Assembly: GCA_964035575.1 (NCBI GenBank)
Contig: OZ037835.1
Span: 992,001 to 1,056,000, forward strand
DNA: 64,000 nt
Origin: Rhynchopus sp. YZ270_cl-10
Taxonomy: Eukaryota
Direction of reading: 5' to 3'
Part shown: positions 16,973 through 48,309 of the stretch, piece by piece
Layout of the letters: the number at the start of each line of letters is the position of its first letter
Position numbering within the stretch: position 1 is the stretch's first letter
Notes under the pieces: generated by a model
What the model saw: the letters and a program-made list of their open reading frames with translations, nothing else
Told to the model about the DNA's origin: nothing
Databases searched by the model: none
Made by a program: the position numbers and the translations under genes

Positions 16973-18406
16973 TCATCTGAAACGCACCTCCTCCAGTGCA
17001 GCTATACGAGAGTTTGCAGTCTCAAGCTGCGAGTACAATACACTAACCAGCAACTGCACCACGTCTGTTTCCTTTCCCTCCACCGCATGCTGCAACGCAG
17101 TGTAGTTCTTTGCAGTGTCTCGGTGATTCACATCCACCTCTGGCAAGCCCACAAGATAGCGCACAGTCTCGGTCTGTCCATAACATGCCGCAAGCATAAG
17201 ACACGTGCGTCCATCGTCATTTGTGGCACGGACACCCGCACCTGCTTCAACCAACATCTCCACAACCTCAAGTTCCCCTAAAGCGCAAGCGTAGTGCAGA
17301 GGCGTGCCACCCTTGTGGTCCGTTGTTTCGATGTCTGCACCTGCATCAATCAGCAACTGCACCACGTCTGTATCATATTCCTCCACCGCATGCTGCAACG
17401 CAGTGAAGCTGTTAGTATCTTGCTGATTCAGTTCCACCTCTGGCAAGCTCATAAGATAGCACACAGTCTCGGTGTCTCCATAACGTGCCGCAAGCATAAG
17501 ACACGTTTCCCCGTCGTCAGTTGTGGCACGCATTCCCGCACCTGCTCTGGTCAACATCTTCACAATGTCGAGTAATTCGAATTTGCAAGCATAGTGCAGA
17601 GGCGACCATCCGTCATTGTCCTTTGCATCAATGTCTGCACCTGCATCAATCAGCACCTGCACCATGTCTGTGTGCTCGTTAGCTGTTGCCCTGTGCTGTG
17701 TCGCAAAGTGCAACACAGTGTAGTTATTTCTAGCATTTCGGTGATTCACATCGACACCTGGCAAGCTCACAAGATAGCGAACACTTTCGGTGTGCACACG
17801 CTGTGAAGCAAGCATAAGACACGTGCATCCTTCATCATTTGTGGCACGTACATCCGCACCTGCTTCAACCAACATCTTCACAACGTCAAGTGCTCCTGAA
17901 TCGCAAGCATAGTGCAGAGGCGACCATCCGATCTTGTCTTTCGTATGTAAGTCTGCCCCTGCATCAATCAAGACGCGACACACTGCAGGGTCTGCCCACA
18001 TGGCCGGACAGTCACCTGCGCTGTGCTTGGAATCACGCGTGCGATTGGATCTATGCCGGACAAACGCCACGTTGTTGCAGACTGACTTCCAATGCTGCAA
18101 GAGGACCTCCGTGCACGCAACGTGGTCTGCGTGGACACACTCACTCAGCAGCATCCCAAAGCCCATCTGCGTTGTCTCAACATACGGAAGAAGCAGTGTG
18201 AGGCATTCATCGTGGTTCCCTCTGCATGTCTCGTGCGCAGCATCGAAGGCCACTGCTTTTCTGTCTGGGTTCAACTTCTCAAGGACCGCCCGCACGGCAG
18301 TCGTGTCGCCGTTCTTGGCAGCCTCCATCAAGACCTCGTCTGCAGAAAGCTGTCTTCTCTTTCGTGGATTCTCGTCCTGCGTGCTGTCTGCGTGTCGCTT
18401 CGGCAT
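16973..18406 (-). CDS. Ankyrin-repeat protein, copy 3 (477 aa)
   Basis: Intact paralog; short coiled-coil-like tail (SQLETANSRIAALEE). Confidence 0.9.
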   Translation of the reverse strand: MPKRHADSTQDENPRKRRQLSADEVLMEAAKNGDTTAVRAVLEKLNPDRKAVAFDAAHETCRGNHDECLTLLLPYVETTQMGFGMLLSECVHADHVACTEVLLQHWKSVCNNVAFVRHRSNRTRDSKHSAGDCPAMWADPAVCRVLIDAGADLHTKDKIGWSPLHYACDSGALDVVKMLVEAGADVRATNDEGCTCLMLASQRVHTESVRYLVSLPGVDVNHRNARNNYTVLHFATQHRATANEHTDMVQVLIDAGADIDAKDNDGWSPLHYACKFELLDIVKMLTRAGAGMRATTDDGETCLMLAARYGDTETVCYLMSLPEVELNQQDTNSFTALQHAVEEYDTDVVQLLIDAGADIETTDHKGGTPLHYACALGELEVVEMLVEAGAGVRATNDDGRTCLMLAACYGQTETVRYLVGLPEVDVNHRDTAKNYTALQHAVEGKETDVVQLLVSVLYSQLETANSRIAALEEVRFR

Positions 18407-19009
18407 TGTGTGTTTGTGTATTGTTGCTGTGTCTTTTGTGGTGGTTTCTTTTTGTGCAGAGGTTGTGGGTGACAAGAGAGGACGAAGAACACACATGGTG
18501 AGCATCCTTTTTCGTGTGTGGAATGTTACAAAAGCAGGGCATGTTAAGATTACAGCCCTCTCGTGACAGTGTACTTTACATGCCCGTCTGTACCGGGGTG
18601 GACACCCAACCATGCAGTCCTACGTCGATTTTGTGGTTTGCATCTGATATGTGCTACTCCCGCTTCCACTCATCAGCCAGATGAACGGGGATCATTGTGA
18701 ATACAGGGACATGACTTCTATGATGTAGGGTGAGAGGCGGGTACAGATAGCAGCGGATTCCGACCTAAATCCTGAAAGCAGGTACAGGGTAGAGTAGTGG
18801 GACACATAGCTGCTGACAGAGTTTCTCCTGTCTAACTTAATACCTACTCGCAATTCCTGTTCCTCCTCGACTGGCGGGGCCGGCCGTGGCGCAAGCCGCG
18901 ACGAAGGAGTGCAACAGCATGGAGGGCACGCGACGCAGACTGGACATCACGTCCCATCACAGCCGACTAGCTGGACCACGCGAAGGACCTGGGCACCAGT
19001 ATCCGCATG

Positions 19010-21148: not shown

Positions 21149-21752
21149 ATATTAAACTTGAAAAACGTGATCCACCCCCGCAAAAAGAAAAACCAGCAAA
21201 AGGGAAGGATGGCACCACGGTGTGCCAGAGAGTGGCTTGATCCCATTTGCTGACTTATACCCAACAAAGAAGCGACACCTAAGTGAACAGGGGCCGTATA
21301 CCACCGCTGGTGGCCTAGGTTAGTATATAAGCCAGTTCAAGGTCCGCACTCTGGCAGCGTCAAAAGAAATAAACAACAATAAAACCACCAGTCATTCCAA
21401 TGGGAGGAACGAATGACTGGCATCTCCTAATTCTCTAAACTGCGGTGAGTGGAACACCCAACTGATGCAAACCACTGCCGCAGGTTAGCACCTACAAAAA
21501 GCAAAGAAAAGAAAAGCAAAAGCTGTGCATGGTCGTAAAGTAGGTGCAGGGTCGCTTAAATCCCTGAGGGCACAAAAAGCCCAGCATACACCTCCTCCAG
21601 TTGCTTTGGACCCTCCAGTATCATGTGCCCGGGTTTGCAAAAGTGCAATGCAACCATCCCACGCGTGGCCTTCGTTCACTCAAAAAAGAGATTATATCCG
21701 GGGACGCCAGGGCAAAAATGCCGGGGGGCTGCCACCTCACGTTTTTGTCCCC
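21149..21752 (-). mobile_element. 604-bp non-coding SINE-like retroelement at Ubl-LRR site C
   Basis: 18-bp TSD TCGAYACTTGTCAACGAG (21131-21148 / 21753-21770, one mismatch); HDV-like fold at 5' end; no poly(A). Confidence 0.85.
21661..21752 (-). ncRNA. HDV-like ribozyme candidate with a hairpin inserted in L3
   Basis: P1 GGGGAC/GTCCCC, P2 GTGGC/GCCAC (extended by ACGT/GCGT), P3 GCC/GGC, P1.1 CC/GG, P4 CTC-T6-GAG, J4/2 C-GAA; G1 is the first base after the TSD. Confidence 0.65.
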
Positions 21753-22010: not shown

Positions 22011-23836
22011 GTGGTAGTCCGTTTTAACGGTCTCTGGCAGGCCGGGCCTTTCTGTGGCCTTCCCAACCAAAAGACCCCCAAAAAACACAGGTACCTGCTG
22101 CGTTTAGTGGTACTTTACCCCAGTCCCTGGAACAGATCGGCAAGCCGACCAGCCCAGGTATGCATGCCAACACTACTGGGGGTGCACTGTTCGATAGCAT
22201 AAAAGAAAAGTCAAAAAGTCAAAAAGACAAGAAGGTCAAACAAAATAGGTACTTCGAACAGGGCTGACAGGAGGGGATTCTCACCCGAGGTTCGGTGCCT
22301 GTCAGGCTGCGATTAGTGGTTCTGGGTGATTCCCTTCTTCCTAGCCACCGTTACCGCGGTGCCCACACCGTAAGAGAATGGGGACGGTTCACGACCGTTC
22401 GTACGCGTCAGCAAAAGTAGGGGTCGGAGTCCAGGCCCGAACCGGAAACATTAACCTCCGTTTTTCGAAACATTAAAAAGTAAAAATGAAAATCAACAGC
22501 AAGAGCAGTGTTGCTGTAAAAGAAACAGCAGCACCGTCAGCTAACATGTCCACACAATATGGCAGACGGCCACACAAAATTCCCCTGATTTGTACAGAGA
22601 AAGTTGTAACTTCTTCCTTACAAGTAAGGGAGTACCGGTAGGGAAGGAGTTACAACAAACAGTGAACAAACTCAAGTACCAGCCTTTCCGCGTAGCACAG
22701 ACCCTACATTTGGTAGTTGGTCTGCCCTACTGCCTCTTCTGCACCGTAGCTGAATGCCACGGCGACAACTCCTTCATCTATCAACGTACCAAAGCACGTG
22801 AAAATAGAACAAAAACAAACACATTGGAAAACAACAGAGCATGTACCTGCAGAGTGCACACACCCTGAAAGTTTAACCTCTTCCTTCTAGCACAGACGCT
22901 GGTCTGCCCTACTGCCTCTTCTGCACCGTAGCTGGACGCCACGGCGACAACTCCTTCATCTCCAACGTACCAAAGCACGTGAAAATAGAACAAAAATAAA
23001 CACATTGGAAAAACAGCAGAGCATGTACCTGCAGATCCACAGTTGTTTCACGTACAGTGCATACACCCTGAAAGTTTAACCTCTTCCTTCTAGCACAGAC
23101 GTTGGTCTGCCCTACTGCCTCTTCTGCACCGTAGCTGAATGCCACGGCGACAACTTGTACCCACCTGCGAATGAATGTCCGCAGATCCCTTCTTCTACTA
23201 ACGTATAAAAACGTAAAAACAGACCAAAAACTACAACATGCCACACTGAATTAACGACAGAGCACGCACCTGCAGATCCACAGATGTTTCACTACGGTGT
23301 ACACAGCCTGAGGTTAAACACATAACACAAGAATTCTACTACGGCAAAAAGATGACAACTGAACTGAACTGAACAAAACTACAACACACCACACTGAATA
23401 CACAAGAGCACGTACCTGCTGATCCACAGTTGTTTCACATACAGTGTACGCACCAACAAAGCAACACAACGTTCCCATGCGGTCAAACGACAACACAGGA
23501 ACAGCAACAATATTCCGTCACCAGTAGAGACACCGGCAACGCTTCCTTCTTGTACCTGGGATCCCCTCATCGGCATCAACACACTCCCAGTCACCGCACA
23601 GGTAACAGATCCTTGAAACCCCTCCGAAGGGGTTTGCGTAGCCTACATAAGCTGGTGATCTGCCCGAAATTGACTGTGATGTTGTGTTAATAACCAGGGT
23701 TCCCACATCGGCTTGTTCCTCCTCCGGTCCCGAGCGAATCCATCATTGGAGAGGCGGCCGCCCACGCTGACTCAGTACCATGCGAACACGGCGTCCAGGG
23801 GCCCCACTTGGCGGTTGGTCAGACGTTAATTGCCCC
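22011..23836 (-). mobile_element. 1.83-kb non-coding composite retroelement with internal tandem repeats at Ubl-LRR site A
   Basis: 19-bp TSD CTTCTGCGTCTTCGTGAGG (21992-22010 / 23837-23855); HDV-like 5' end; ~180-200-bp repeats starting ~22718, 22900, 23103. Confidence 0.85.
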
Positions 23837-25768: not shown

Positions 25769-25882
25769 GTCTTTGTTGTGGTTTTGTGTTCTGATCTCTG
25801 TGTGTGGTGGGTGTGGGGTTTATGATCGTACTCTTAGAGGTCAAAAGAAATCAAACAAAAGCAAAAAGGGGAGAATGAGGGA

Positions 25883-26641
25883 GGGACAGCGGTGCAGAGG
25901 TTGTGGTACGTATGGCATGCATGGTTCAGAGCCTTGTGGCCATGAGGGTAACGGAGACTGTGCTGATTGGGACGAGTGAGCAGATCGTACAGTACTCCTG
26001 CGAGGGGGTGAAGATGCGTGCCATTGAGAAATGTGGGTGTTCCTTTGCAGTGTCACCCTGCGAGTCCCTGTTATTGAGCAACGGATCCTCAATTTCTGCA
26101 GTGTTCCGTCTGGACACCCCTGAGCTGTGTGAGGTGCACCGTGTGGACACGTTCGACGGGACGTCCTGGTTGCGGCCGATATTTTCGCCTGACGCAAGCT
26201 TCGCAGTGTTGAGCTCTAGCGAGAAGCGCACTGTCCGCACCATTGACATGGACTCCGGGCAGACGCTCTGCACACTGCGTAGTGTAGAGGTTATTAATGG
26301 CGTTATATATGCTGCCTGTTTCAGTGCGTGCTCGCGATACCTCTTCACAGCCTCTACCAGGAGTGTGCAGCAGTGGGATGCACGCAGTGGAGCCCTTATG
26401 GGACGCATCGACGCAGAGGGCACGTGGTCTGTGCATGCCTCGACAGACGGGTGCAGGCTGGTCGTTGTCGGAACAAGAGGTATCTCGGTGCTCGACCTTG
26501 CTGCCATGAACATACAGGTGTCAGAGCAGGACGCCCTGCAACATGGTCCCCCGCGTCCGCTCCCCTTGAAAGGAACTGTTGTGCAGTGGGTGTGTGTGTT
26601 CGTGAAGGGGAGGGTGTGGGGACAGTGCTGGAGGCAGGCTA
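25883..26641 (+). pseudogene. Inverted, 5'-truncated duplicate of the Ubl-WD40 gene (1927-3165)
   Basis: Near-identical translation from VVRMACMVQ onward; lacks N-terminus; indels near the C-terminus. Confidence 0.85.
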
Positions 26642-26865
26642 GAATAAGGGTGTATGAGGGGGTCAAACAGCCGTTTTTGACCAAAAAAAACAGCTATTTT
26701 GCGATTTTTTTTGACGCCAGGAGGACTCTGTTGGCCCAAATATCCCCAAAGATGAGCTGTGAGCGCATTCCGACCTGTTTTGGACACATTTGACACTTTT
26801 ATTTGTGTTTTCTTTGTGTTTTTGGGTCAAAAACGGCTATTTGACCCCCTCATACACCCTTATTC
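26642..26865. mobile_element. 224-bp MITE, Tc1/mariner-type
   Basis: ~41-bp TIR GAATAAGGGTGTATGAGGGGGTCAAA.AGCCGTTTTTGACC with one mismatch; TA on both flanks. Confidence 0.85.
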
Positions 26866-27772
26866 TATGTAAGGACCTTCACAAAGAACATTTGCGACAG
26901 GACCCAGCACCTCAAAGATCTTCATCAGAAAAGGGTCGGGGAGGGGTGAAATAGGTGAAGTGGGGCCAGAACAGCGAGCAATAAGCGTCGCAGCTACCGA
27001 GAAATAAACACACTGCCATGACCCTCTACATAAGACATGGGTTTTTGTGGGTATTATTTTGCAGCACAGCAGAACATAATTCTGTTTGATTACAGACTAC
27101 TATCACTAGATAGCAGGCACATTTTTTCTTCACAGGATCCTTAAAAGAGAGCAAATAGAAGGAGTACGCTTTGCAGGAGGTGTCAGAATCCTTTTTTGTA
27201 ACTTATTACGCATCCACTTGACGTTTGGATAAAGAAAAACAGAGACAAAAGGGGGTTTGGGGGAAGAGTTTAATTCTTGAACACATCCCCACACTCAGTC
27301 ACACAAGGCCTTTGCACAAATATGTCCACAGTCAACTCCTGTAGAGACATCCACGTGAACTTCCTTCAGCAGTGCCTGCAGAAGCTCTCGTGTTGACCTT
27401 CGGGACAAAAGAGTAAACAACTTCATGCATATTGGAGTGGCCAATCCTCCTGTAGCATGGAAAAAGGCAAAATAGAAATAGAGTCATTGAGTGAGAAAAC
27501 AGCAATAAAAAGGCGTAAAGCCAAAAAGGCAGAGGAGTGAAAAGAAAGCTTCACAATGGGGAGACAGCGTAACATAACACAATGTGTGGAACGTCTTGCT
27601 CAGCACAGCTCTCCTCTCGCACCAAGTAGCAGTCTGTGCCACGGTGAGCAAGACTGTGCCCCTCTTCTTCTCCGAACCAGAGGACGCAGCAGACATACTG
27701 CCAGAGACCCTCCACCTCGGGGAAGTGCTGCCCTCCCACCAACACACCACGTCGTCATTGTGCGTGTCTCCG

Positions 27773-31164: not shown

Positions 31165-32654
31165 GTCTTTGTTGTGGTTTGTGTTCTGATCTCTCTCTGT
31201 GTGGAGCGGTGTTGGTGGTGATCAGAGTGCGAAAACAATAAAGTAAGTGCAGAATTATCAGGGATCATTGGAGCCAAGACGAAAGTGGTCAACGAGTTCA
31301 GAGTGATGAACTACAGAAAAAAAGAGGGTTGGGTGGGGAGGTACGTTGTAATGAATAAGACATGGGTTTTTGTGGGGATTATTTTGCAGCACAGCGGAAC
31401 ATAATTTTGTTTCATTACAGACTACTATCACTAGATAGCAGGCACCTTTATATTTCTTCACAGGATCCTTAAAAGAGAGCAAATAGACGGAGTACGCTTT
31501 GCAGGAGGTGTCAGAATCCTTTTTTGTAACTTATTACGCATCCACTTGACGTTTGGATAAAGAAAAACAGAGACAAAAGGGGGTTTGGGGGAAGAGTTTA
31601 ATTCTTGAACACATCCCCACACTCAGTCACACAAGGCCTTTGCACAAATATGTCCACAGTCAACTGCTGTAGAGACATCCACGTGAACTTCCTTCAGCAG
31701 TGCCTGCAGAAGCTCTCGTGTTGACCTTCGGGACAAAAGAGTAAACAACTTCATGCATATTGGAGTGGCCAATCTCCTGTAGCATGGAAAAAGGCAAAAT
31801 AGAAATAGAGTCATTGAGTGAGAAAACAGCAATAAAAAGGCGTAAAGCCAAAAAGGCAGAGGAGTGAAAAGAAAGCTTCACAATGGGGACACAGCGGAAC
31901 ATAACACAATGTGTGGAACGTCTTGCTCAGCACAGCTCTCCTCTCGCACCAAGTAGTAGTCTGTGCCACGGTGAGCAAGACTGTGCCCCTCTTCTTCTCC
32001 GAACCAGAGGACGCAGCAGACATACTGCCAGAGACCCTACCTCGGGGAGGTGCTGCCCTCCCACCAACACACCACGTCGTCATTGTGCGTGTCTCCGTCA
32101 CTTCTGGCTTTGCTCAGGGGATTCGTCTCTGCTTCGTTTCGGACGTGCTTTAACCACAATCTCACTCAGCTTGCCCTTCCACACTTCGTTGGACACAACA
32201 CTGCTGCAGCCGGAAAGGTAAATACTCGTCAACGAAGTGCAGTTCTCAGCAAAAGTCGTACCTCCTCCAAAACCGCTACTAAGATGCGTCACTTTGCTGA
32301 GTGGTGACAAATCCAGGGTTGTTAAGCTCTTGCATCCGAAAAGAAAGCCGCTCTTAATCTGCGTCACATTGCTGAGTGGAGATAAATCCAGGGTCGTTAA
32401 ACTGATGCATCTTTGAAGGAACCACGAACCAACCTGCGTCACTTTGCTCAACCCAGAGAGGTCGACACTTGTCAACGAGGTGCACTCTGCCAGGAAGCTG
32501 ACTCCAATGTGAGTCACAATGGACTCAGCACTGAGATCAAGTCTCGTCAACGAAGTGCGTGACAAGAACCTACTCGGAATGACAGTCGCAACCTCCGCCT
32601 GCAGAAGCAAACACGCCACCTCAGGATCCTCCACACTCTTCAACCTCTCGGCGG

Positions 32655-33256
32655 ATAAACGTTTTTAAAAATAGGATGGAACACCCCGTTCCGAAGAGGA
32701 ATGCAGCCACCCCGAAAAAGTGGGGGTGTGTCGCCAGTCTGCGGTGAGAAACTCCTCCCTGAGTCAAAACTGCCGCTGGTTAGCGCTGGCTAAGGTTCCC
32801 TTTTCACCCGGTCACAATCGAGTCTCGCTCCGTCGGCGTTGACTGCACTGCAAAGCCCCTTGGTCCACCGTCGTAAAAAGACACCACAAAAAGCGTAGGT
32901 AGGTGGGGGACCGGCAGGTTACAGACAGAGGCAGTACGGAGCTAAGGTGTCGGCGGTCGCGGGTTTCCGTGGAGGCCTGCCCCCCGTGGAGGTCTTGGGA
33001 TCTGGGAGTTGTGGAAGTAATCGGCTCAGAGTACCCTGCATTCCATGCACGACTCGAGCTCCTTGTGGTAGGATATTGGGGTCCCGGGAAGCACCCTTCG
33101 CCCCGAGGTCCCACCACCCCAGACAGTTTGTAGGTCTAAAAGCACAACGTACTTGTCCAGGACCTGGCCGCTCTTGGGTTCTCTCGAAAAAAAGATACTA
33201 ATCCCGTACGCCCGTGCACCGCAAAAATGTGCTATGGGGGGCGGTCCGCCGTCGGG
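32655..33256 (-). mobile_element. 602-bp SINE-like partner of the 7.36-kb LINE, at Ubl-LRR site B
   Basis: 20-bp TSD ACTCTTCAACCTCTCGGCGG (32635-32654 / 33257-33276); 3'-terminal 59 nt match the LINE 3' end at 56/59. Confidence 0.9.
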
Positions 33257-33341
33257 ACTCTTCAACCTCTCGGCGGTCAGGTCTGTCTCACCCAACGCAT
33301 GAAGCTCTGCAATGGCTTGGTACTTCCTCATCTTCGTGAGG

Positions 33342-35132
33342 TAGGGGTCCGTTTTCGATGCATGCACCCCTATCCGAGATAGGTGATACAATACATCGTG
33401 GAGGTGATGTTACATAAGTCCATCACCGCCCCTGCTGTGTCCATCCTTCTGCTTCTTCTTGCTGAAGAGGCCTCCCAACGTCGTCTGTCGCCCCCCCGCA
33501 GTGTCGTGGTGGCGGCGGCAGCAGTGGTCCAGGGTTGTCTTGTCCCGCACGCAATTTCCGCATCTCGAGAGTCTGTGTCGTGTGCACGCCTCGTGTCGAA
33601 TGGCCAGCCCATCGCCGTCGGAGTGGTGCGCATAGCAGCAGTGCCTCAGGTCTGCCATCTGGTCCTTCGCACAGGCGTCACATCGGGCCTTCCGGTGCTG
33701 CACACAGATCGCAAATGGCCCAATCGAGATCGCTCCTGCAGGTGCCTTCACAGGCGCGTCTCCTGGCTTCACGTGCTCATCGTGCCTGTAACGTATGGGC
33801 ACGTTCTCCTCTTCTGCCTGCTCGAAAAAGCGCAGCGCCCTCCTTCCCCTCTCGTCTGCGGGGGGGTATGCCGTCTCAGCAGCGTACTCCCCCATCCACG
33901 TACCCCTCGCTCTACCGTTGCCCCTAATCTCCCCCTCCGTCATGCCTTCCGTCTTGCGCTGCTGTCGGTACGCCGTGCCAGCGTCGAAAAGTGCACGTAG
34001 AACACGTATGGTCTCTTCACCGCCGGCAAAAACAGGACGGCAGTCGATACCGGCGAGACCGTGTGCCCCGAACGACGTCAGTGTCATAGCTATCTTCGGC
34101 TTACCCGGATGCAGTGGCGTTGCAGCATGGGTTCGGAGAGTAGACAGCATGTGACCAAAAGTGGTCGCTTTCGCCATTTCGTTGTGGGGAAGAGCTTCTG
34201 GCATCACGTCGTCGCCGTCGCCGTCGTCGCTGCCACCCTCCCCACCCCCGTCATCCATTTCCCCGTCGCCACCCCCACCACCATTGACAACGCCCCCAGC
34301 CCCGTTCCCCGGTTGCTTCACTTTTGGCGGCTTTTTTCCAGTCTTATCTCCGGGGCGGATGTCCATCCCCGTGGAGACCTCGAAGTCAATGAGGAGTTCC
34401 ATGTGCGAGACTTCGCGTCCAGCCTCGTTGCTCCACCGCAGGCCTCCCAGCCAGTAGGCAATCGCCAGCAGCAACGCACGTCCATACGGCCATTTCTTCA
34501 CTGGGAGGGTGCAGCTTCCTAACACATTCGGATACTGCGTCGTCGTGTCCGCATCCGGTTCCCATGTCCACGGATAACGCTCTTGCTCCAGTTGCGGCTT
34601 CATCTCTTGTGTCCTGTTTTGCCGGTATCGCTCGATGAGGATCCTCACCATCATCATCTGCAGGTCTGCAACACGGGCGGTGGCCAAAGGTGTTTCCGGT
34701 GTGCACATTCCGCAGATAGACAGACAGTTCGGCCAGTTCGTTCTGTCAATGTTCAGGAGTAAGGGGTAGTCCGTGCGGATGCTTTCCCATGCGACACACT
34801 CCCACCACATATGCTTGGGATCCTCATCCACCCCTGCAGCACAATACGGGCAGGTGGCCGTTTCTCGTAACTTTGCCCTCGCAAGTCGCACCCCCGTGAG
34901 AGTACCGTCAGCCACGATGTGTCGTAACGTCCCCGCCTCGTAGTCCGACAAAACTTTGCTCTTGGTAAGCGCCAGTGTCTTCTCCTTGTCCACCCCTGCT
35001 CGGATCCCCCGCAGGTTAGCTCTGCCTCCGCCTTTTGCATTCACGTCTGTCTTCGTACTGGAGAGCCGTACGAAGAACATGCGCTCCCGCACAAGATGGC
35101 CGAGTTCCCCTAGCTCAATGGTCTTCACATCG
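33342..35132 (-). mobile_element. 5'-truncated non-LTR retrotransposon (second family) at Ubl-LRR site A
   Basis: 18-bp TSD TTCCTCATCTTCGTGAGG (33324-33341 / 35133-35150); encodes post-RT CPYC...EDPKHMWWEC finger and WPY...WL..LRW...VSHMELLIDFE, homologous to the long element. Confidence 0.9.
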
Positions 35133-35347
35133 TTCCTCATCTTCGTGAGGATGATTGTGTCACCAGCACTCAGCTGCGTCATGTCCGCTCCTTCTCCCAG
35201 CGCTTCGTCTCCGAAACTCATGCAAAAGCCGTCTTCAGGCAACCCCATTGCAGACGCCACCTTCCGCCGCAAGCCCTCCACTGTGTCATCTGCACCCACC
35301 TCGACTGTGTGCTGATTCGTGTCGAAACCCTTGATGTTCAGGTCCAT
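33410..35347 (-). CDS. Chimeric ORF: host Ubl fused in frame to retroelement C-terminal region (645 aa)
   Basis: Continuous frame from host ATG 35347 through ...IILTKMR|NDVKT... to stop at 33410. Confidence 0.5.
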   Translation of the reverse strand: MDLNIKGFDTNQHTVEVGADDTVEGLRRKVASAMGLPEDGFCMSFGDEALGEGADMTQLSAGDTIILTKMRNDVKTIELGELGHLVRERMFFVRLSSTKTDVNAKGGGRANLRGIRAGVDKEKTLALTKSKVLSDYEAGTLRHIVADGTLTGVRLARAKLRETATCPYCAAGVDEDPKHMWWECVAWESIRTDYPLLLNIDRTNWPNCLSICGMCTPETPLATARVADLQMMMVRILIERYRQNRTQEMKPQLEQERYPWTWEPDADTTTQYPNVLGSCTLPVKKWPYGRALLLAIAYWLGGLRWSNEAGREVSHMELLIDFEVSTGMDIRPGDKTGKKPPKVKQPGNGAGGVVNGGGGGDGEMDDGGGEGGSDDGDGDDVMPEALPHNEMAKATTFGHMLSTLRTHAATPLHPGKPKIAMTLTSFGAHGLAGIDCRPVFAGGEETIRVLRALFDAGTAYRQQRKTEGMTEGEIRGNGRARGTWMGEYAAETAYPPADERGRRALRFFEQAEEENVPIRYRHDEHVKPGDAPVKAPAGAISIGPFAICVQHRKARCDACAKDQMADLRHCCYAHHSDGDGLAIRHEACTRHRLSRCGNCVRDKTTLDHCCRRHHDTAGGRQTTLGGLFSKKKQKDGHSRGGDGLM

Positions 35348-38270: not shown

Positions 38271-40665
38271 GGCTTCGACGCTCAGGGCCATCTTCCTGAT
38301 GTGTTTGTTTGCAGAAGCTGGTGTGTTGTCGCTGTTCGTGTACTGCTGTGATATGTTCTGGGCAGTCTTGCTGTACCCAAGCAGAGAGTCCTCCCTACCC
38401 ACACACAGCTCTGCACACTGTTCCCACTCACCCCACCCCACTGGCAGAGGCGACACAGTGCTGCTATAAGATGCAGTACCACCCATAGACACTCCGCTGT
38501 CTCCACCCACCCCACGCAAGGAAGAACGCCAAAGGTGCTCTCGTGCTGCAACCACAGACAAGCTGAGGTGCCAGACAAATGCACGAAAGCATCCCACGGC
38601 CGGCCACAGCTTCCCCTCTCCCATCATTTTCACAAAACGATGCAGGGAAGCGCCACACCCAAACACCCCCCACACTCACAACACTGTGCACCTCCACCTC
38701 CCTGTCCCCACCCAACCCAACCCACAGACCTTCACCGCAACAGGGAGAACACCCAAACCCCACATCAACCTGCCACTCCCTTGGGTACTCTTCCTCCAGG
38801 CAAAAGCCATCAAGAGAAACGGTTACCACCCCCGGGGTTGCCTCCTCCTCCTTTGTGCAGCGCTGCTGCACTTCCCACACCCACCCCGCCCCACGATGTC
38901 TCCCACCTCGCAGAAATGAAAGTCAAATATAATAAAAACCCCTTTCATCTTTTGTTTAGTTGGTACGCTACCCACGTCATACGCAAAGTATTTGTCCTAA
39001 TAAAACAAATACATCCGTTCACTCGATTAATGTTGAAGACTCATGGCAACCGAAGAACGCGTCTTTCATTTCCAGACGTATTGCATAAAGGCGTTGATTC
39101 AAAAGGGGGCAACAATCACGAGAATGGGAATAGTGGTGGAGAGATTGAGAAGGTGAACGCTTCCCTCCCCTCCATGTCACACTTTGTGTATCAGTATTGA
39201 TAAGGTTGACACAGCCTGGCACAATACTGTCCGATCCGGTGACGTTGGTCCTGCTTCTACTCATTTTGCACCCTTTAAGGAAGCCAAAACCAACTATAGT
39301 GAAGTTTGAGGGGCGGTTCACGCTAAAGGGAGTCCCAGAAGCATAGTTTCATTTCATAGTTTCATTTACCCATATGAGCAATTGGTGGCAATGACCAAAT
39401 TTGTATCAATCAAGAACTTGCTAATTTTTCCGAAATGACCCCACTACAGTGGGGGTAGAGCTCGGAAAATCCGAAAAAGGCCAAAAACCTCTCCAAAAAC
39501 GGGGAAAAAACGATACAACATTTCCAGAATTTTGCTGTTTCCCCAGTAGTTTTTTCTTGTGTGCGTGCGTACAGATTGTTTGGGGAGGTTGGGACCCAGA
39601 ACAAGAAAAAAACTTGTGCTTCCCTAAATAATGAAACCCCCGTTCATCTTTTGTTTAGTTGGTACGCTACCCACGTCATACGCCCCAAGCACCCCAAGAC
39701 GACAGTGAAAGACCACGTGGTGTCAACGAGTTCAGGAGTGATGAATTGCAGATAAAAAGGGGGTTGGGTGGGGAGGTACGTTGTAATGAATAAGACATGG
39801 GTTTTTGTGGGGATTCTTTTGCAGCACAGTTGAACATAACACAATGTGTGGAACGTCTTGCTCAGCACAGCTCTCCTCTCGCACCAAGTAGCAGTCTGTG
39901 CCACGGTGAGCAAGACTGTGCCCCTCTTCTTCTCCGAACCAGAGGACGCAGCAGACATACTGCCAGAGACACTCCACCTCGGGGAGGTGCTGCCCTCCCA
40001 CCAACACACCACGTCGTCATTGTGCGTGTCTCCGTCGCTTCTGGCTTTGCTCGGGGGACTCGTCTCTGCTTCGTTTCGGACGTGCTTCAACCACAAGCTT
40101 CCTCAGCTTCTCGCCCTTCCTCACTTCGTTGGACACAACACTGCTGCAGCCGGAAAGGTAAATGCTCGCCAACGAAGTGCAGCCCGCAACAATATTTGTA
40201 CCGAATAAACCGCTACTAATGTGCGTCACGTTGCTGAGTGGAGATAAATCGAGGGTCGTTAAGCTGATGCATTCCTGAAGGAAGTGCGCACCAACGTGCG
40301 TCAGGTTGCTGAGTGGAGATAAATGGACGTTGGTTAAGCTCTTGCATCCGTAAAGAAAGCCGCCGTCAATCAGCGTCACGTTGCTGAGTGCAGATATATC
40401 CAGGGTCGTTAAGCTGCTGCAGTGCTGAAGGAACCACGCACCAACCTGCATCACATTGCTCAACCCAGAGAGGTCGACACTTGTCAACGAGGTGCAGTTG
40501 GCCAGGAAGCAGTCTCCAATGTGAGTCACAATGGACTCAGCACTGAGATCAAGTCTCGTCAACGAAGTGCGTGACAAGAACCCATTCGGAATGACAGTCG
40601 CAACCTCCGCCTGCAGAAGCAAACACGCCACCTCAGGATCCTCCACACTCTCCAACCTCTCGGCG

Positions 40666-43600
40666 ATAAACGTTTTTAAAAATAGGATGGAGCACCCCGG
40701 TCCGAAAAGGAATGCAGCCACCCCTGGCTTCAGGCTCGCGAACCCAGCGTTGATGTAACACAGGGTTTCACGGGCCAAAACCAGAAAAAAATGAAAAATT
40801 GAGGGTTCAACGACTGCGCCAACTGGTCTCATGCGACGTTGAACCAACTTAAAATCTAGAATCTTGTGTCAACTTGTAAAGAAAAGCAATGAATATTAAA
40901 ATTACCGGTTTCAGGCGTGGCGTACACGTCTGCTGCCATCTACGCTGGGATAGCCGTCCGGTTTGAACTTGGGGTTCAACAACAGTGCCAAATGGACTTA
41001 TGCGTCGCTGTGTCAACTGAAAAACAATGAAAAACAAGAATGTCGTTGAGGAAGATTGAAATGCATGAAAAACAAGAAGAACAAGGTAAAATATCTACAG
41101 AGGGTGCTGTCCTAGCTTGTCCTCTTTCGTTGTCTCGCCCACACTAAGCTTCTCAACGGCCGTGCAGGCGAGCTTTGTGGCGTTCACGTTGTTACTGCTG
41201 TCGATGTGCACCAACGTGATGCTTCGGGTCGCTCTCAGCTTGTCAAGCTCACCCCGCGCCTCTTTCTGGAGGTGGGCGACTGCCGCGTATGGTCTGCAGT
41301 GCTCGTTCACCTGGTCAACCACGGTTCTACTGGATCCGTAGATGTTCAGTGGTGTGGTGTCTGTGTCGCTCTTCAGGTATTCGAGGCACATCAGCAGTCC
41401 TTCATACTCCGCGACGTTCAGGGTTGTGTCCGCCAGGCGACTGCTGGCTGTCCACCGCACCTCGCCATCTATCTCGAGGCGTGCACCTGCGCCCGATCCC
41501 TGGCAAGTGTTTTTCTTCACCCTCGCCCCCGGCTGCCTCACGTTGCAGTATCCGCCGAAGAAGATGCGAGTGTGTCCGGTGGGTTTCTTTGGTTTTCGTC
41601 GAGCCTGCTTCTGCTGCTTCTGCTCAGCAGCCAAGCGGATGTGCTTCGCAATTCTGTCTGCTCTCTCCTGTTTGCAGTCCTCGTCTAGGGGTGGGAGCTC
41701 TGTGTTCGTCCAGGATTTGTTCCCTTTGCAGAGGGTTGGCAGGGACCGGATCGTCTTGAGCACCTCAGCAGGTTCGGTGAGGATGGGTCGTCTCGTGATC
41801 GCTAGGGTTCCCCACTTGATGCCTAGGTCTAATGGGGCGAACACTTTGCTCTTGGGGTAGATGGTGCCCGAGAAGAGGTACGCGTTTGCTGCCACTATCT
41901 TTGCCTTAGCCATCCAGTTGCTGAACCAGGTGATTTTGTCGGTGATCATGGAGCTCTCTCGGGAATTGGGTTCCTCTGTGGTGAGCTTTGCTCCTGTGTG
42001 CGCTTCGAAGTCCAGCGCCAGCTCCAGGTGCGAGACGTGCTGTGATTTCCCATTGGACACCGTCGGCCACTTTAGGCTTTCCAGCCACTCCTTGAGTGCG
42101 AGGTATCCTTCCGCTTTGTACGGCCACGCGTCTGGCACCTCGTCAGGAAGTACTCCTATGTAGGTCTCGTATGGGCCTTCTGGTTCCCATGTCCAGGGAA
42201 AATTGTCCATTTGGCTCGTCTTCGTTGTAGTGGTACCGCGTTTTCTCTTGTCCTCCCTCTCTAGGGCGATGTCTGAGTACATGAGAAGCAGCAGCTCTAG
42301 GGCTTCTCTGTTCGGCACTTCCGGAATCATCTGGAAGCCGGCGGGGAGAATGGCGTTGAGGCGCAGGCATTTCGGCCAGCTTTCTCTTACTGCTGGATCG
42401 GACACTCCTGCGTATTTGTGCTGTTCGCGTATGTGTGCGGTGTGGCTGCATTGTTCCCACATGTGTTCAAAGTCCTCCACACCTGTGCCGCAGTGCTCGC
42501 ACGTGTCACTGGTGCTCATCTTCATTCTTTTGCGCCTGTCCTGTGTGAGCTCCGCTCCTGCAAGAATGTTCCTCATGTACCCTGCACGCAGTGGATCTGT
42601 GTTCTTGTAGCTGTTCCACACGGCGTTGATCGTGCGATAATCGATGCCATCTTTAACCCCTTGCATGTCCTCCCTCCTTGTCTCGAGTCTACGGCAGAAA
42701 TCGTCCCTGATACCGTCTCGGAGTTGGTGTCGAAGAAGGTCACCCTCGGGTTCGTCGAGGTTCATCTGTGTTGTGTGCGGGGGCAATAGGGTGTTGTTCT
42801 CCCAGCGCCAGTTCATGGATTGGGTGGTGCGGAGGAGGATGTCTACCGGTCCACAGTATTTTACTCTCGACGTCCGCTTCAGGATACGGATCTCGTCTAT
42901 TAGGGTTCTAATCTCCTGGTTCTTCCCCATGGTGTAGAGCGCGAGCAGGCGTTGGTACTTGAGGTAAGATGTTGGGTCTGTCCGGTGTAGCGGGTTCAGC
43001 ACTCCCCTCACTATTTCACTGCATCTGCTAGGTAGGCCCCTCCAAATCGCCGCCGTCACTGCTTTGGTGAGCCTTCCAGCGGTGGTGGACAGCGGCTCGT
43101 ACGTCTCGCAGCCGTAGAGTGCCATGGGCATTATTTTTGTCGCCACCAGTTCGGCTCTGCCTTCAAAGGGGACGTTGAGGTGAGGGATACGTCGCGCACA
43201 TGTCTCAGCTTTGCGCACTCGCTTGTCCAGCTTTGTCGCTGCTTCCTTTTTCTTGGCTACGGCCAGTCTGATCACTGCGCCGAGATTGTCCAGTTCCTTC
43301 TTCTCCTGTCTCAGCTGGGTGTCTCCGAGCATGAGCTCCAGCTTTTCGGTCTTGGCTGTCGAGAAGGAGAAACTACTTCCGTACGTGAGGTCGGTCTTGG
43401 TGGCGAAGTCGTGGGACACTGTGAGGCCTTTCCTCAATTGTGCGGTGTTGTTCGAGGTCATGGTGGTGTCGTCCGCGTACAGGCTTGTCCGACATCTGGT
43501 TTCCGTCCGAACCGCCGCCTCCCACACTGCTAGGAGGGCGTTCAGCAGGATAATGCTCAGCGCACATCCCTGCAGAATGCCATTGTTCGCTTTGAACTCC

Positions 43601-46600
43601 TCACCGACCGTACCGTATAGTTTGAACCGCCTCTTCAGGTCCCTGTACATGCTCTTGAGGGGCCGCGTGATCTTCATGTCGATCCCCATTTTCTCCACAA
43701 GACTGAAGGTTATGTCCCACGGTATGGTGTCGAAGCATTTCTTAATGTCCAGAAATACTCCTCGCAGCGTGTTCCCCGACACCATTGCTTTTTCGACCAG
43801 GAGTGCGGTGAGGTAAAAAGCGTCACGTGTTCCGTGCCCAGTCCTGAAGCCGTGCATGGATTCCGGTGCCCATGTCTCTTGCCACACCATTAGGCTCGTC
43901 AACCTTGTCTTTGCCCATAGCCGATATACCGCCGACATCACGGAAATTGGTCGGTGGTCGAGTGGTTGTGGGTCCTCCACCTTGGCGATCATGCTCACGG
44001 TCGCGTGGAGGAGAGCTTCTGGCCATACGCCCGTCTCTTCTACTTGGTTGAGGATTGATGCCAGCCTGTCGAAGATCCCCGTTGGGAGAAGCGCAAGTTC
44101 TTCTGGGTGCCATCCGTCTGTGCTGGGGGCCTTCCCCTTCGGCATGCTCTCGGCCACGGCTTTCAGCATCCTTCCGGTTAGGGGTTCTACGTGCATCGGC
44201 CGTTGAGGTATGTGTGTGCCAAACCTTTCCTCGAACGCTTCCCACGTGGGTGTGTCACTCAGGGTGTTGTGCTTTTGAAGTATGGGAAGCCATGCCTCAC
44301 GCAACCACGTGTCCATGTCCTCCACATTCGCGGTCTCTTCCGTCCCGCGCTTCATCGTGTTGCACCGCATTTTGGCTCCGTTGAGGCGCTTGTAGATGAG
44401 CCCTGGTGTGGTGTGCCATTGCGTGCGTATCATGCGGTACCTTTGCGTGGCCCTGTCCCTCTCCAGGTTCTTTCTGGCAGTTTCGAGTCTCTGGTGCAGG
44501 CGCTGTATCAGCTCCAGTGTCGTGCTGGCCTGCGGCTCCTCCTCTGGGGTAGCGTCGAGAATGCTCACCAGCCCTGCCTTCGCTTTGTCCCACGCCTTGC
44601 GTGCGCTGGGTGTGAGGGCTCCTTTGGTGCGTAGAGTGTTGCCGACCTCAGTTAGTCTGCGGATCGTCTTCCGGATGCGCGTCATCTTGAGGGTCTCTCC
44701 TGCGTCGCCTTCGCGAGACTGTCTGCTGCACAGCCAGGTGCGTCGCAGTTTGGGTGGTCGGCCTTTGCGAAAACATGCTGCTGAGTTGTCGTCTCCCTGC
44801 CGTGCCCAGAAGTTGGTCGCATCCTCATTCCATGCTTTCCACTTGTCCTCTACCAATGTGCTTGCGTGCCATTGTGCTTTGGAACCATCGCAGATCTCTT
44901 CAGCCTCCTTTTCAAGGTCTGCCTTCGTTTTCTTCCTGCTCAGTTCATCCTGTTGTAGCATAGGGGGCCTTTCCTGCTTGAGCACACGCTGCCGGTACGT
45001 CATATTTTTAAATGTCGCGTCCAGGGGGATGTGTGAAGGTATTCCGGCCGTCCCCGTTTTGCACCCTGCCAGCGCAAGCACCGCGATTTGGTTGGCCAGT
45101 ATGATGTCAATTCGTGAGCACACACTTTTGGCTTCAGACTTTGTGCTCTTACCGATGTGGGTGTGCTCTGGCTCTTGGTTGGCCCAGCCCGCGGCTCGTT
45201 CGGCACAGTCCGTCCATCGTTCTGAGCTGATGGCTAGGGATATTGCTTCGCTTGAGCTGGGTTCTGGGTGGCTGTTGCAATCCCCGAGGATAATCGCTGG
45301 TACGTCCCCTATCTCTGCTTCTGCAAATACATCCGATAGGAAGCTCTCGCGCTCTTGCTTTGCTTGCGGGGAGTTGCCGACTTTGGCGTATATCACGAAT
45401 AGGTGTAGAAAATGGTTCCCTGCCCCATGTGCCACCTTTGCGTGCAGGTAACGCTTTGAGTCCCAGAGTCTCTTTGCTCGTTCAGTATCTCTCCTGACCA
45501 CACTTGCTGGTATGCCTCGTTTCACCATTAGGCCCACCCCCTTGTGCTCTCCGTAGCTCTGTTGTATTGCATTTGGAAGTAACTTTACTGGGCACCCCCA
45601 GAGACCTGTCCAGCCTTGTTCATACAGCGTTCGGGAAGCTTGGGCCTGTTTCTTCTGTGTGAGCCGAGTCTCCTGCAGTGCGACTATGTCGTTGTCCCAA
45701 CTCCACACCTCCTCCTGGTGAGCATTCATTGAGGTGATGTTGGCAGTACGTATGGACAGGTTTGGAGTGGCCCGGGCAGCGCGGCGTCGCTTTCTCTCCG
45801 TCTTGGTACGTTTCCGTGAGCGAGACACTGCGATATTCGTGTCCAGGTTCTCCAGCGTGACACAGCGGTTGCCTTCTGCCTGCGTCGTTGCAATCAGCGA
45901 CAGCAGCCCCTCGGTTGCTTTGAGGCGGTCGAAGTGCTCGGGCCTGTACGTGAGCACAACTGGGTTCGATGTAGGTGGTCCGCCGACGTGGCTAAACCGT
46001 TTCGCTCTGGCATCCAGTACCCAGATGGCCCTGTCGAGTATGCTTGCCGCAGTCTGTAGCTCACGTTCTCCACCGTACGTTCCTTGCATTCTCATTTTGG
46101 CTAGGTGTTGCGTGTAGGTGGGAGGTTCGTTTGCCTCAGGAGAGTAGCTGTCAGCATAGAGGTCACTGTCGTCGTTTTGCAGTACGTCCACCACCCGTTG
46201 TCGCAGTGAGTTCGTTGTCCACCCCTCGCTCTGCTCAGCTATGGCAGTGAATAGGCAGTCCCCGTCTGGCGCTACTGCTATCCTTGTAGAGTTGATACTG
46301 CGGGCTGTTGCGTCCAACCACTCCTTGTGGTCGGTGATGGCCCTCAGTGGGTTCACGGGATTGTCGTTGTTTTTGGGGTAGGCGCTCCTACCTATCCCCG
46401 GTTCTATGTGCGATTCTAAGTACGTATCTAATCTAGTGGGGTCTGCCTTTGCGTCCAGCCAGTTTCTAGTTTGTTCTAATTCTAAGAGGGGGTCGGGAGT
46501 TGATTTACAGGGGATAGGGGAAGGAGAGTTCAGAGATCGAGGTTGAAGTCGAGCAGGTTCGCTTGTCCTTGGCTTTTCCCTGGGTCGTCTTTTCCCTTTC

Positions 46601-48027
46601 CCTTTCCCTTCTTCCCCGCCAGCGGCGACGCGGAGAAGATGTCGTCGAGGGAGGCGGCCGCGGATGGCGGGGCGGTGGTTCCCCCTTTCCCCTTTCCCCT
46701 TTCCCGCCTTCCCCTTTGCAAGTGGGGTCTTTGCCCCCTTGTTTGTCTCCGCGGGAGACGGCGTGGGTGCCTGCGGCGGAGTCTTCAGCGACTCTGCGTC
46801 AGGGAGTGGTGATGGGGGTCGTGGGGAGCTGGGCTGTGAGGCGGTGGTGGCGTTGGCGTTGGTGTTGGTGCTGGTGTTGGCGGATACCACCCTCAGGATG
46901 TGCTGCAGGCACTCCTCCGTCGAGATCTGCCGAGCCTCGATGCTCTGCAGACGCCCATCCATGCCGTGTAGCACGGCCGTCGTTTCGGCGTGCTGCGACG
47001 CCTGTCGTTCCAGCAGGGCTTCGATGCCCTTGCCCATCCCTTCCACCCCGATGCTCATGGCCTCGAGTCCCCTGCCCATGTGCAGAAGGGCAGCCGTGGT
47101 CTCCTGGCCTGTGCGTGATAGCTGTGTCAGCGCGGCCGCGTTCTGCTGCACCACCGAGAGCAGCGGGTCGAGGTTCTGAGGTGTGGTGAAGGTCTGTTGG
47201 TGATGGGATCTTTGCTCCTTGCGCTGCAGCCATGCCAGCTCCAGCTGTGTGCCTTCCTCGAAGAGAAGTTTGCCTCTGGCTGCCCCGTACTCCTGCCTGA
47301 ACTCTGCAATGGTATACTTATCCTTGCGGTTCCTCACCGTGGGGTCGGGGACTCTCTTGGGGGCGTGGTTGTGGTTGGTGGTGGTGGTGGTACTAGTATC
47401 CTTTGCTTCTGCGGGGAAGATTGACACCACAACGTTTTGCCACTTGATGCTGCGGTGTGGGGGCTGGGACTCCGCACGCACCACGAGGGTCTTCTCCCCC
47501 GTTCTGCCCTTGTTGAGCAGCGTCACCACCCGCGCCCCCTCCCACTGCATCGCCTTCAATGCGGTGACGCAGTCCGCTCTGGTTGCCTGGGGTGGGACAG
47601 GTCTGAGGTCGTATACCCGGGCGGCGGAGTTCGTTGCCTTGCTGTCGGGTATCTCGAGTGTGAATGGGGGGGTGTCGTCCATAGCCTCCGGGGTGTCGCC
47701 GCTGCTTCCTCCCCTTAGCCTACCCAGCTCCCACACGTTGCAGTGCGTCCTGCACATCCGGAGCGACTCCTTGTCGCTCATGTCCCTTCCGTTGATGGTA
47801 AGGCGTTGCACGTCTCTGCGTCCACCTGTCTTCGCTCGCACTGCCGCCTTCAGGTCAGCCACCGAGTCCGCGTCGCTGACGTCCACTGTCACTGTCTTTC
47901 CAGTAAGCGTTCGCACAAAAATCTGTCTTTTTTCTTCGTCGTTTTCTTCTTCTTCTTCTTCCGAGTCTTTGCCGCAGTCCACTGCGTTGCCCGGGGTCAC
48001 CTCGTGGAGGTGCTCGGTAAAAACCCC
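40666..48027 (-). mobile_element. Full-length APE-type non-LTR retrotransposon (7.36 kb) at Ubl-LRR site B
   Basis: 19-bp TSD ACTCTCCAACCTCTCGGCG (40647-40665 / 48028-48046); 5' HDV-like ribozyme; one long ORF; ~430-nt 3' UTR; no poly(A) tail. Confidence 0.95.
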
Positions 48028-48309
48028 ACTCTCCAACCTCTCGGCGGTCAGGTCTGTCTCACCCAACGCATGAAGCTCTGCAATGGCTTGGTACTTCTGC
48101 GTCTTCGTGAGGATGATTGTGTCACCAGCACTCAGCTGCGTCATGTCCGCTCCTTCTCCCATCGCTTCGTCTCCGAAACTCATGCCAAAGCCGTCTTCAG
48201 GCAACCCCATTGCAGACGCCACCTTCCGACGCAAGCCCTCCACTGTGTCATCTGCACCCACCTCGACTGTGTGCTGATTCGTGTCGAAACCCTTGATGTT
48301 CAGGTCCAT
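41095..48309 (-). CDS. Host Ubl (94 aa) fused to retrotransposon polyprotein: Ub-RLRGG, coiled-coil ORF1-like region, OTU protease, APE endonuclease, RT, CCHC finger, RNase H-like (2404 aa)
   Basis: Ub QIFVRTLTGKT...RLRGG (47707-47928); OTU DGDCLF...YGGERE...EHFD (~45920-46290); APE TANI, LQET, GDCN, SRID (~45020-45760); RT LDIKKCFD, LQGCALS, YADD; CEHC..EDFEHMWEQC; RNase H NVAEYEGL (~41170-41570). Confidence 0.9.
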   Translation of the reverse strand: MDLNIKGFDTNQHTVEVGADDTVEGLRRKVASAMGLPEDGFGMSFGDEAMGEGADMTQLSAGDTIILTKTQKYQAIAELHALGETDLTAERLESGVFTEHLHEVTPGNAVDCGKDSEEEEEENDEEKRQIFVRTLTGKTVTVDVSDADSVADLKAAVRAKTGGRRDVQRLTINGRDMSDKESLRMCRTHCNVWELGRLRGGSSGDTPEAMDDTPPFTLEIPDSKATNSAARVYDLRPVPPQATRADCVTALKAMQWEGARVVTLLNKGRTGEKTLVVRAESQPPHRSIKWQNVVVSIFPAEAKDTSTTTTTNHNHAPKRVPDPTVRNRKDKYTIAEFRQEYGAARGKLLFEEGTQLELAWLQRKEQRSHHQQTFTTPQNLDPLLSVVQQNAAALTQLSRTGQETTAALLHMGRGLEAMSIGVEGMGKGIEALLERQASQHAETTAVLHGMDGRLQSIEARQISTEECLQHILRVVSANTSTNTNANATTASQPSSPRPPSPLPDAESLKTPPQAPTPSPAETNKGAKTPLAKGKAGKGKGERGNHRPAIRGRLPRRHLLRVAAGGEEGKGKGKRRPREKPRTSEPARLQPRSLNSPSPIPCKSTPDPLLELEQTRNWLDAKADPTRLDTYLESHIEPGIGRSAYPKNNDNPVNPLRAITDHKEWLDATARSINSTRIAVAPDGDCLFTAIAEQSEGWTTNSLRQRVVDVLQNDDSDLYADSYSPEANEPPTYTQHLAKMRMQGTYGGERELQTAASILDRAIWVLDARAKRFSHVGGPPTSNPVVLTYRPEHFDRLKATEGLLSLIATTQAEGNRCVTLENLDTNIAVSRSRKRTKTERKRRRAARATPNLSIRTANITSMNAHQEEVWSWDNDIVALQETRLTQKKQAQASRTLYEQGWTGLWGCPVKLLPNAIQQSYGEHKGVGLMVKRGIPASVVRRDTERAKRLWDSKRYLHAKVAHGAGNHFLHLFVIYAKVGNSPQAKQERESFLSDVFAEAEIGDVPAIILGDCNSHPEPSSSEAISLAISSERWTDCAERAAGWANQEPEHTHIGKSTKSEAKSVCSRIDIILANQIAVLALAGCKTGTAGIPSHIPLDATFKNMTYRQRVLKQERPPMLQQDELSRKKTKADLEKEAEEICDGSKAQWHASTLVEDKWKAWNEDATNFWARQGDDNSAACFRKGRPPKLRRTWLCSRQSREGDAGETLKMTRIRKTIRRLTEVGNTLRTKGALTPSARKAWDKAKAGLVSILDATPEEEPQASTTLELIQRLHQRLETARKNLERDRATQRYRMIRTQWHTTPGLIYKRLNGAKMRCNTMKRGTEETANVEDMDTWLREAWLPILQKHNTLSDTPTWEAFEERFGTHIPQRPMHVEPLTGRMLKAVAESMPKGKAPSTDGWHPEELALLPTGIFDRLASILNQVEETGVWPEALLHATVSMIAKVEDPQPLDHRPISVMSAVYRLWAKTRLTSLMVWQETWAPESMHGFRTGHGTRDAFYLTALLVEKAMVSGNTLRGVFLDIKKCFDTIPWDITFSLVEKMGIDMKITRPLKSMYRDLKRRFKLYGTVGEEFKANNGILQGCALSIILLNALLAVWEAAVRTETRCRTSLYADDTTMTSNNTAQLRKGLTVSHDFATKTDLTYGSSFSFSTAKTEKLELMLGDTQLRQEKKELDNLGAVIRLAVAKKKEAATKLDKRVRKAETCARRIPHLNVPFEGRAELVATKIMPMALYGCETYEPLSTTAGRLTKAVTAAIWRGLPSRCSEIVRGVLNPLHRTDPTSYLKYQRLLALYTMGKNQEIRTLIDEIRILKRTSRVKYCGPVDILLRTTQSMNWRWENNTLLPPHTTQMNLDEPEGDLLRHQLRDGIRDDFCRRLETRREDMQGVKDGIDYRTINAVWNSYKNTDPLRAGYMRNILAGAELTQDRRKRMKMSTSDTCEHCGTGVEDFEHMWEQCSHTAHIREQHKYAGVSDPAVRESWPKCLRLNAILPAGFQMIPEVPNREALELLLLMYSDIALEREDKRKRGTTTTKTSQMDNFPWTWEPEGPYETYIGVLPDEVPDAWPYKAEGYLALKEWLESLKWPTVSNGKSQHVSHLELALDFEAHTGAKLTTEEPNSRESSMITDKITWFSNWMAKAKIVAANAYLFSGTIYPKSKVFAPLDLGIKWGTLAITRRPILTEPAEVLKTIRSLPTLCKGNKSWTNTELPPLDEDCKQERADRIAKHIRLAAEQKQQKQARRKPKKPTGHTRIFFGGYCNVRQPGARVKKNTCQGSGAGARLEIDGEVRWTASSRLADTTLNVAEYEGLLMCLEYLKSDTDTTPLNIYGSSRTVVDQVNEHCRPYAAVAHLQKEARGELDKLRATRSITLVHIDSSNNVNATKLACTAVEKLSVGETTKEDKLGQHPL
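47961..48027 (-). ncRNA. HDV-like self-cleaving ribozyme
   Basis: GGGGTT TTTA CCGAGC ACC TCCACGA GGT GACCCC GG GCAA CGCAGT GG ACTGCG G C AAA GACTCGG parses as P1, P2, P3, canonical L3, P1', P1.1, GCAA, P4, catalytic C, P2'. Confidence 0.88.

Follow-up and report, generated by a model that had tools for sequence, protein, structure and literature searches.

The window (the whole stretch of 64,000 nucleotides that was analysed) comes from a genome taken as diplonemid-like and holds nine starts of a ubiquitin-like/LRR gene. All five inserts recognised in it lie in this gene family, in three of the nine copies and at three sites (A, B and C), in the gene's sense and flanked by duplications of 18-22 bp. 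One host copy (32098..35347, minus strand) is split by a short element at site B and by insert A1 at site A, and another (40017..48309, minus strand) by a LINE at site B. The family comprises 313 protein clusters among 468 candidates, and the 120 clusters listed are spread over many contigs. No other copies of the five inserts were found in the window, save one 41-nt match to insert A2 and short low-complexity matches.

The LINE is full-length (40666..48026, minus strand) and lies between two copies of a target-site duplication with an exact 20-bp core (40646..40665 and 48027..48046). A single open frame (41095..48309, minus strand) runs from the host ATG through the entire element. It begins with the host ubiquitin-like domain, followed by a ubiquitin-like domain of the LINE that ends in LRGG (47922-47707) and by OTU (46269-46006), APE (45696-45082), RT (43959-43291) and zf-RVT (42603-42433) domains, all on the minus strand. 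ORF1 continues the frame opened by the host ATG (47707-48309), and ORF2 bears the OTU domain, which carries Cys and His and is also found in the relatives P0122 and P0151. In two other proteins, P0127 and P0131, ORF1 is followed by a stop, so the single frame seen here likely results from the gain of a 7-nt repeat or from an assembly slip near 46690. The RT resembles L1 ORF2p and R2. The C-terminal RNase H-like region (41095-41500) is without the aspartates present in P0122 and looks catalytically dead, likewise in P0121 and P0128. An HDV-like ribozyme fold (47959..48027, minus strand) is predicted at the 5' junction by a strict descriptor and by Rfam RF02682 (E 8e-6; 37.8 bits, below the gathering score of 44), and it begins with a target-derived base, the one that ends the target duplication.

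With regard to the RT clade, relatives at E<=1e-20 were only three, of which the two foreign ones stood at 35%. Matches in the protein atlas were APE-RT-RNase H clusters, and one LINE relative came from D. japonicum. A related LINE was present in another genome (P0122 and P0138-P0150), where 11 of the 14 members list one and the same longest contig. One of these relatives, P0143, carries a fusion to another family of repeat genes, DUF4116, which hints at gene-family targeting in that genome too. A search of metagenome contigs with the 59-nt tail pattern described below gave 0 matches, and the search with a LINE protein pattern gave 67 matches, of which 0 were confirmed.

The short element (32655..33256, minus strand) is 602 bp long and non-coding, with no long open frame found in it. 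It is flanked by an exact 20-bp target-site duplication (32635..32654 and 33257..33276). ARAGORN reported 0 tRNA genes in it, and the Rfam search of 32500-33500 returned one chance match (E 1.3), with no head family and no ribozyme; a tRNA-type SINE with a tRNA, 5S or 7SL head was thus ruled out. The element is not a LINE fragment either, as it has no match to the LINE beyond the tail.

Borrowing of a LINE 3' tail by a SINE is textbook knowledge, and a sequence-only reading of this locus had proposed such a pair. The tail match it reported was confirmed: 56 of 59 nt are identical between the short element (32655..32713, minus strand) and the LINE (40666..40724, minus strand), with E 3e-21 within the 64-kb window and a score reached by 0 of 1000 shuffles. 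No third copy of the 59-nt tail was found in the window. Poly(A) is absent from both elements, again as claimed, and each tail directly adjoins the target duplication. The similarity was also said to stop beyond the tail, which holds on the insert side (27 of 58 aligned nt identical) but not on the host side, where 191 of 199 nt are identical and a 429-nt match stands at 91%, because both inserts lie in paralogues of one gene. The 59 nt are the length that the two elements have in common, and hence an upper bound for a recognition signal.

The small GGAAC/GTTCC stem put forward as part of the tails did not survive as a common fold, since two of the three differences strike one pair, which in the LINE becomes a C-C mismatch. 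The RNA fold that both tails do have in common on the minus strand is a predicted 14-pair hairpin made of the first 41 nt (32713-32673 in the short element and 40724-40684 in the LINE), followed by 18 unpaired nt. Its z scores are -2.6 and -2.5, with equally good folds in 2/200 and 5/200 shuffles, for these two sequences alone. In the same two sequences, two of the three differences fall in the loop region and one turns a G-U pair into G-C. The first base of the hairpin is also precisely where the homology of the tails sets in.

At its other end the short element resembles a different insert. Over its first 130 nt it has homology with the head of insert C (21149..21752, minus strand), a 604-bp non-coding element with an 18-bp duplication at site C, and none with the LINE head. 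Among six head pairs compared, only the short element and insert C beat all 1000 shuffles (690 of 1000 were as good for the short element and the LINE), and among ten tail pairs only the short element and the LINE did so. An HDV-like fold was predicted by the strict descriptor for insert C (21752-21665, minus strand), and the homologous head of the short element (33166..33256, minus strand; 0/1000 shuffles) has an imperfect version with a bulged P1, found with the relaxed descriptor only. The HDV descriptor was written after the folds had been seen and gives 2.4 chance matches per 64 kb (30 shuffles) against three seen, so that the count is uninformative and only the position of a match counts; two of the three matches start at insert junctions. 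The third, on the plus strand of insert A2, was treated as chance. No autonomous parent of the insert-C-type head was found. Between the body of the short element and that of insert C there was also a 50-nt likeness (E 0.002), which was discarded, as 214 of 500 shuffles were as good.

Joining a head like that of insert C to the tail of the LINE, the short element is built as a hybrid in the manner of the Drosophila R2/R1 SIDEs. It is independently mobile, and hybrid SIDE is a better name for it than SINE. The proposed pair stands as an autonomous and a non-autonomous element linked by a 3' tail of predicted structure, the latter element without a tRNA or Rfam head.

Two further inserts occupy site A. 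Insert A1 (33342..35132, minus strand) is a LINE that belongs to a second family and is truncated at its 5' end. It lies in the host's reading frame and is flanked by an 18-bp duplication; its protein is 33% identical to that of the site-B LINE over 236 aa. Insert A2 (22014..23836, minus strand) is a 1.8-kb non-coding element with a duplication of ~20 bp. No Rfam ribozyme was found in insert C or A2. The likeness between the A1 and A2 tails is just a 9-nt word, with 634 of 1000 shuffles as good, so that A2 as a partner of A1 rests on the common site and on P0131. Site-A tails recur at site A in P0181 and P0131. In P0181, from another contig, a 20-codon piece of the A1 tail stands between two LTKTK repeats as a tiny in-frame site-A insertion. 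The tail of insert C (21149-21218) has a predicted hairpin followed by 18 unpaired nt and a weak likeness to the site-B tail (27/1000 shuffles).

The two elements had been placed at the same site, and they do occupy the same place in the host gene, but their duplications are offset by 1 nt. Each duplication is exact over 20 bp and carries its own paralogue allele on both sides. The distinct alleles and the offset indicate two independent insertions of the TPRT type and not one duplicated event. The register of the tail junction varies by 1-3 nt. An AG/GT was seen on the sense strand in the site-B duplications (32635-32654, 33257-33276, 40646-40665 and 48027-48046), so that splicing between both copies would restore the host frame; none was seen by eye in the duplications at sites A and C.

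Four of the 13 listed sequencing runs were examined (X3, X4, X6 and X10), and the short element was found nearly unchanged in all of them. In X6 it lies in one 558-nt contig with a depth of 27.8, against 2-3 for the flank variants, where depth is a rough guide. In X10 it lies at site B of a diverged paralogue, with six of the seven differences in the flank. These sequences show independent insertion of several copies of the short element. Copy numbers from summed depth were discarded, being inflated by overlapping contigs. Part of the head (33052-33231) has about twice the depth of the body in X4 and more in X3, perhaps reflecting a family with the same head and another body.

The LINE also recurs at site B in other paralogues. 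Its protein cluster has 19 members; among the 15 listed, eight start inside the element and seven have a foreign N-terminal segment. A site-B peptide stands at the junction in four of these 15 (P0134, P0131, P0130 and P0125), a count that covers in-frame cases only and in which P0125 and P0130 carry one common truncation. P0134 is the LINE copy of the window, P0130 sits in a ~50%-identical paralogue, and in P0125 the LINE tail at site B is followed by a second LINE in tandem. Three others (P0126, P0128 and P0133) have a common, unplaced 32-aa N-terminus. Separately, P0226 has a few extra residues at site B of an otherwise intact paralogue, perhaps the footprint of a short insertion.

Targeting of site B, as the sequence-only reading had proposed, is nevertheless not strict. 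Of the 118 contigs of run X3 aligned to the tail, 30 fit only partly, and in at least 22 the tail adjoins a flank without alignment to the window paralogue (rows of 6, 13 and 3 contigs; 6 of 18 loose-end rows). These flanks may be distant paralogues or unrelated loci, and several of the contigs are diverged and of single-copy depth. One LINE tail flank in X10 has no clear motif (5-7/14). A strictly sequence-specific LINE was rejected in view of the 1-nt offset and these other flanks.

Random insertion, which would have spoken against targeting, is not what the flanks suggest. By hand count, their consensus agrees with the 14-nt site-B motif, in the register of the LINE, at 11/14 positions in the row of 6 contigs and at 10/14 in the row of 13, for which the null is 1e-4 to 1e-3 with a motif chosen after seeing the data; in the row of 3, 6 of 11 positions fit. 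The conserved off-target bases, also counted by hand, lie 5-18 nt from the junction, and the nearest 4 are not conserved. Since the motif is kept in register beside other flanks, targeting is a preference, neither strict nor random, and a strong though degenerate one. With up to three mismatches the motif occurs 22 times in the window, 11 of them in the ubiquitin-like/LRR family, against 7.6 expected.

In our view the 602-bp element is a hybrid with the 3'-terminal 59 nt of the LINE, and it is probably copied in trans by the LINE protein, whose endonuclease probably picks the degenerate site-B motif, mainly in the ubiquitin-like/LRR family. In this account the hairpin and HDV-like folds are predictions, and the steps are drawn from the anatomy of the elements and from known systems. 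Both elements, lying in the host's sense, would be co-transcribed with the host gene, and the putative HDV-like ribozyme would cut the element RNA free at its 5' end, as in the ribozyme release described in the available part of PMC4035085. The ORF2 protein would bind the tail hairpin, much as stringent LINEs are described as binding tail stem-loops (PMC4176376, in part), and the APE would nick the target at the site-B motif. Reverse transcription (TPRT) would then start at the end of the tail, and a second nick 20 bp away would yield the 20-bp duplication. The tail would choose which LINE's enzyme is used, and thereby set the site only indirectly. According to the accessible portions of two papers, hybrid SIDEs use the site of the tail donor (PMC3414825) and the endonuclease dictates the relative site specificity of L1Tc/NARTc (PMC5814959). 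The gene family, with hundreds of copies, would serve as a tolerated multicopy target common to at least two LINE families at three sites.

The inserts of the window contain a head/tail swap, in that the short element has the head of the site-C insert and the tail of the site-B LINE, and its site tracks with the tail and not with the head. This swap cannot separate the tail from the recruited enzyme as the chooser of the site. That the tail itself holds the targeting information, with 59 nt as the minimal signal, would agree with the co-variation of tail and site across families A, B and C, and with eight X3 contigs that drop out of the alignment, with mixed sequence, at one common 59-nt edge. 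Enzyme choice explains the co-variation equally well, no complementarity of the tail to site B was seen by eye, and a length in common gives an upper bound and not a minimum. In addition, endonuclease swaps in R1-clade elements reportedly moved the specificity. We regard an address in the tail as very improbable, and the recruited endonuclease as the likelier chooser of the site.

RNA-DNA pairing offers another route to the same site, in which read-through past the tail into site-B host sequence would pair with the nicked target and the endonuclease would be loosely specific. The lack of poly(A), the tails that abut host sequence and the junction register that shifts by 1-3 nt are all consistent with it, and short downstream homology helps TPRT in some R2 systems, according to the accessible part of PMC13708176. 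The off-target flanks point the other way, since bases conserved 5-18 nt out, and not in the nearest 4, fit protein read-out better than primer pairing, and we consider this route unlikely. Least probable is that the match arose once, through recombination or gene conversion between paralogues or through one template switch, without any mobile short element. The host flank (191/199) is indeed as similar as the tail (56/59), but the separate exact duplications in different alleles and register, together with the recurrence of the short element, almost without change, in four runs and also within a diverged paralogue, have largely refuted this reading already. Trans copying by the LINE protein remains the preferred explanation.

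The closest known counterparts are the Drosophila R2/R1 hybrid SIDEs, which, in the part of PMC3414825 available, likewise join the ribozyme head of one family to the 3' end of another, insert where the tail donor inserts and with the same duplication, form tandem inserts there, and occur among several site-specific families in one multicopy gene. The short element shows these features in its head from another family and in sharing the position of its tail donor, the two 20-bp duplications being offset by 1 nt. A SIDE-type HDV-like ribozyme is predicted with the relaxed descriptor for the short element and with the strict one for insert C and the LINE. Unlike the 28S rDNA of the Drosophila elements, the target here is a diverging protein-coding family; the tail is one 59-nt block at 95%, the specificity is looser, and the autonomous parent of the head donor was not found.

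The ingi/RIME and L1Tc/NARTc pairs of trypanosome RHS genes (excerpts of PMC7563717, PMC5814959, PMC4035085 and PMC12278014) are also a euglenozoan APE LINE with a short partner. In common with the present elements, ingi/L1Tc have a hot spot in a protein-coding multigene family and relative site specificity, and they have a 5' HDV-like ribozyme, which is predicted here. The APE, RT and RNase H set of ingi/L1Tc is present in the LINE, whose RNase H-like region is without the aspartates of P0122. In contrast, the ingi/L1Tc clade has a poly(A) tail (PMC12278014, in part), whereas none is present here, and L1Tc and NARTc have the first 77 nt (Pr77) in common, whereas the present partners have the tail and not the head in common. 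A Pr77-type head common to the LINE and the short element is absent, the two heads being unrelated when compared with each other. Further differences from ingi/L1Tc are the OTU and ubiquitin-like domains, the three sites instead of one and the 18-20-bp duplications.

Stringent LINE/SINE pairs (PMC4176376 and PMC3747384, in the parts available) likewise have a common 3' tail, with a stem-loop of the kind predicted for the present tails; the present pair differs from them in having a head not derived from tRNA, 5S or 7SL and a site-preferring insertion. In the Tx1 and R1 clades, as covered by the available text of PMC4640811, target-specific APE elements have a similar site preference for a multicopy target. 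NeSL/Utopia carry a Ulp1 protease according to the same text, where the present LINE carries an OTU, both being ubiquitin-family protease domains in a retrotransposon.

The targets listed for Tx1/R1 in that text are RNA genes, transposons, microsatellites and telomeres, and known site-preferring retrotransposons use mainly RNA genes and repeats (PMC4640811, in part), whereas here the targets are protein-coding genes. RHS genes, described as a retrotransposon hot spot in the accessible part of PMC7563717, are the protein-coding precedent, and the present gene family, protein-coding, with 313 clusters and with its inserts at fixed sites, is an RHS-like hot spot by analogy only. Tail-sharing itself is known; what is unusual is the partitioned protein-coding target, the hybrid heads and the in-frame ubiquitin/OTU layout. 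No prior description of such a system was found in the openly accessible literature. The D. papillatum genome paper states, in its available part, that its elements await rigorous study (PMC10161547), and its repeat supplement may bear on novelty.

We tentatively raise the possibility that, much as in rDNA, one protein-coding family is divided up among three site-preferring retrotransposon lineages whose ribozyme heads are interchangeable and whose tails bear the address. The site-B LINE would insert in frame, so that its ORF1 is translated from the host start codon, and cleavage behind the LRGG of the LINE's ubiquitin-like domain, possibly carried out by the OTU of the LINE, would release ORF1 from the host piece. 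The host-LINE junction is in frame in P0134 and P0131, which are both of the full-length junctions seen, in a biased sample. Ribozyme cleavage would compete with translation from the host start codon.

A single gene family with three sites, two LINE families and head/tail hybrids amounts to a natural swap experiment on what determines the choice of RNA as against that of the DNA site. The candidate tail is very short. With its 14-nt preference on the DNA side and a handle of 59 nt, the APE enzyme is a candidate for RNA-templated insertion, a use limited by the loose site preference.

Other features of the window lie around these inserts. An ankyrin-repeat gene family (3578-8609, 16973-18619 and 60358-63600) is interleaved with the LRR genes. 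A WD40-like gene piece occurs twice as an inverted duplication at 97% (1891-2678 and 25879-26867) and adjoins a 53-nt inverted repeat at 26640-26867. A 9-bp tandem repeat array lies at 54133-54519, and an HSP70 gene at 49983-51815, with its nearest named euglenozoan match in Diplonema papillatum (77%).
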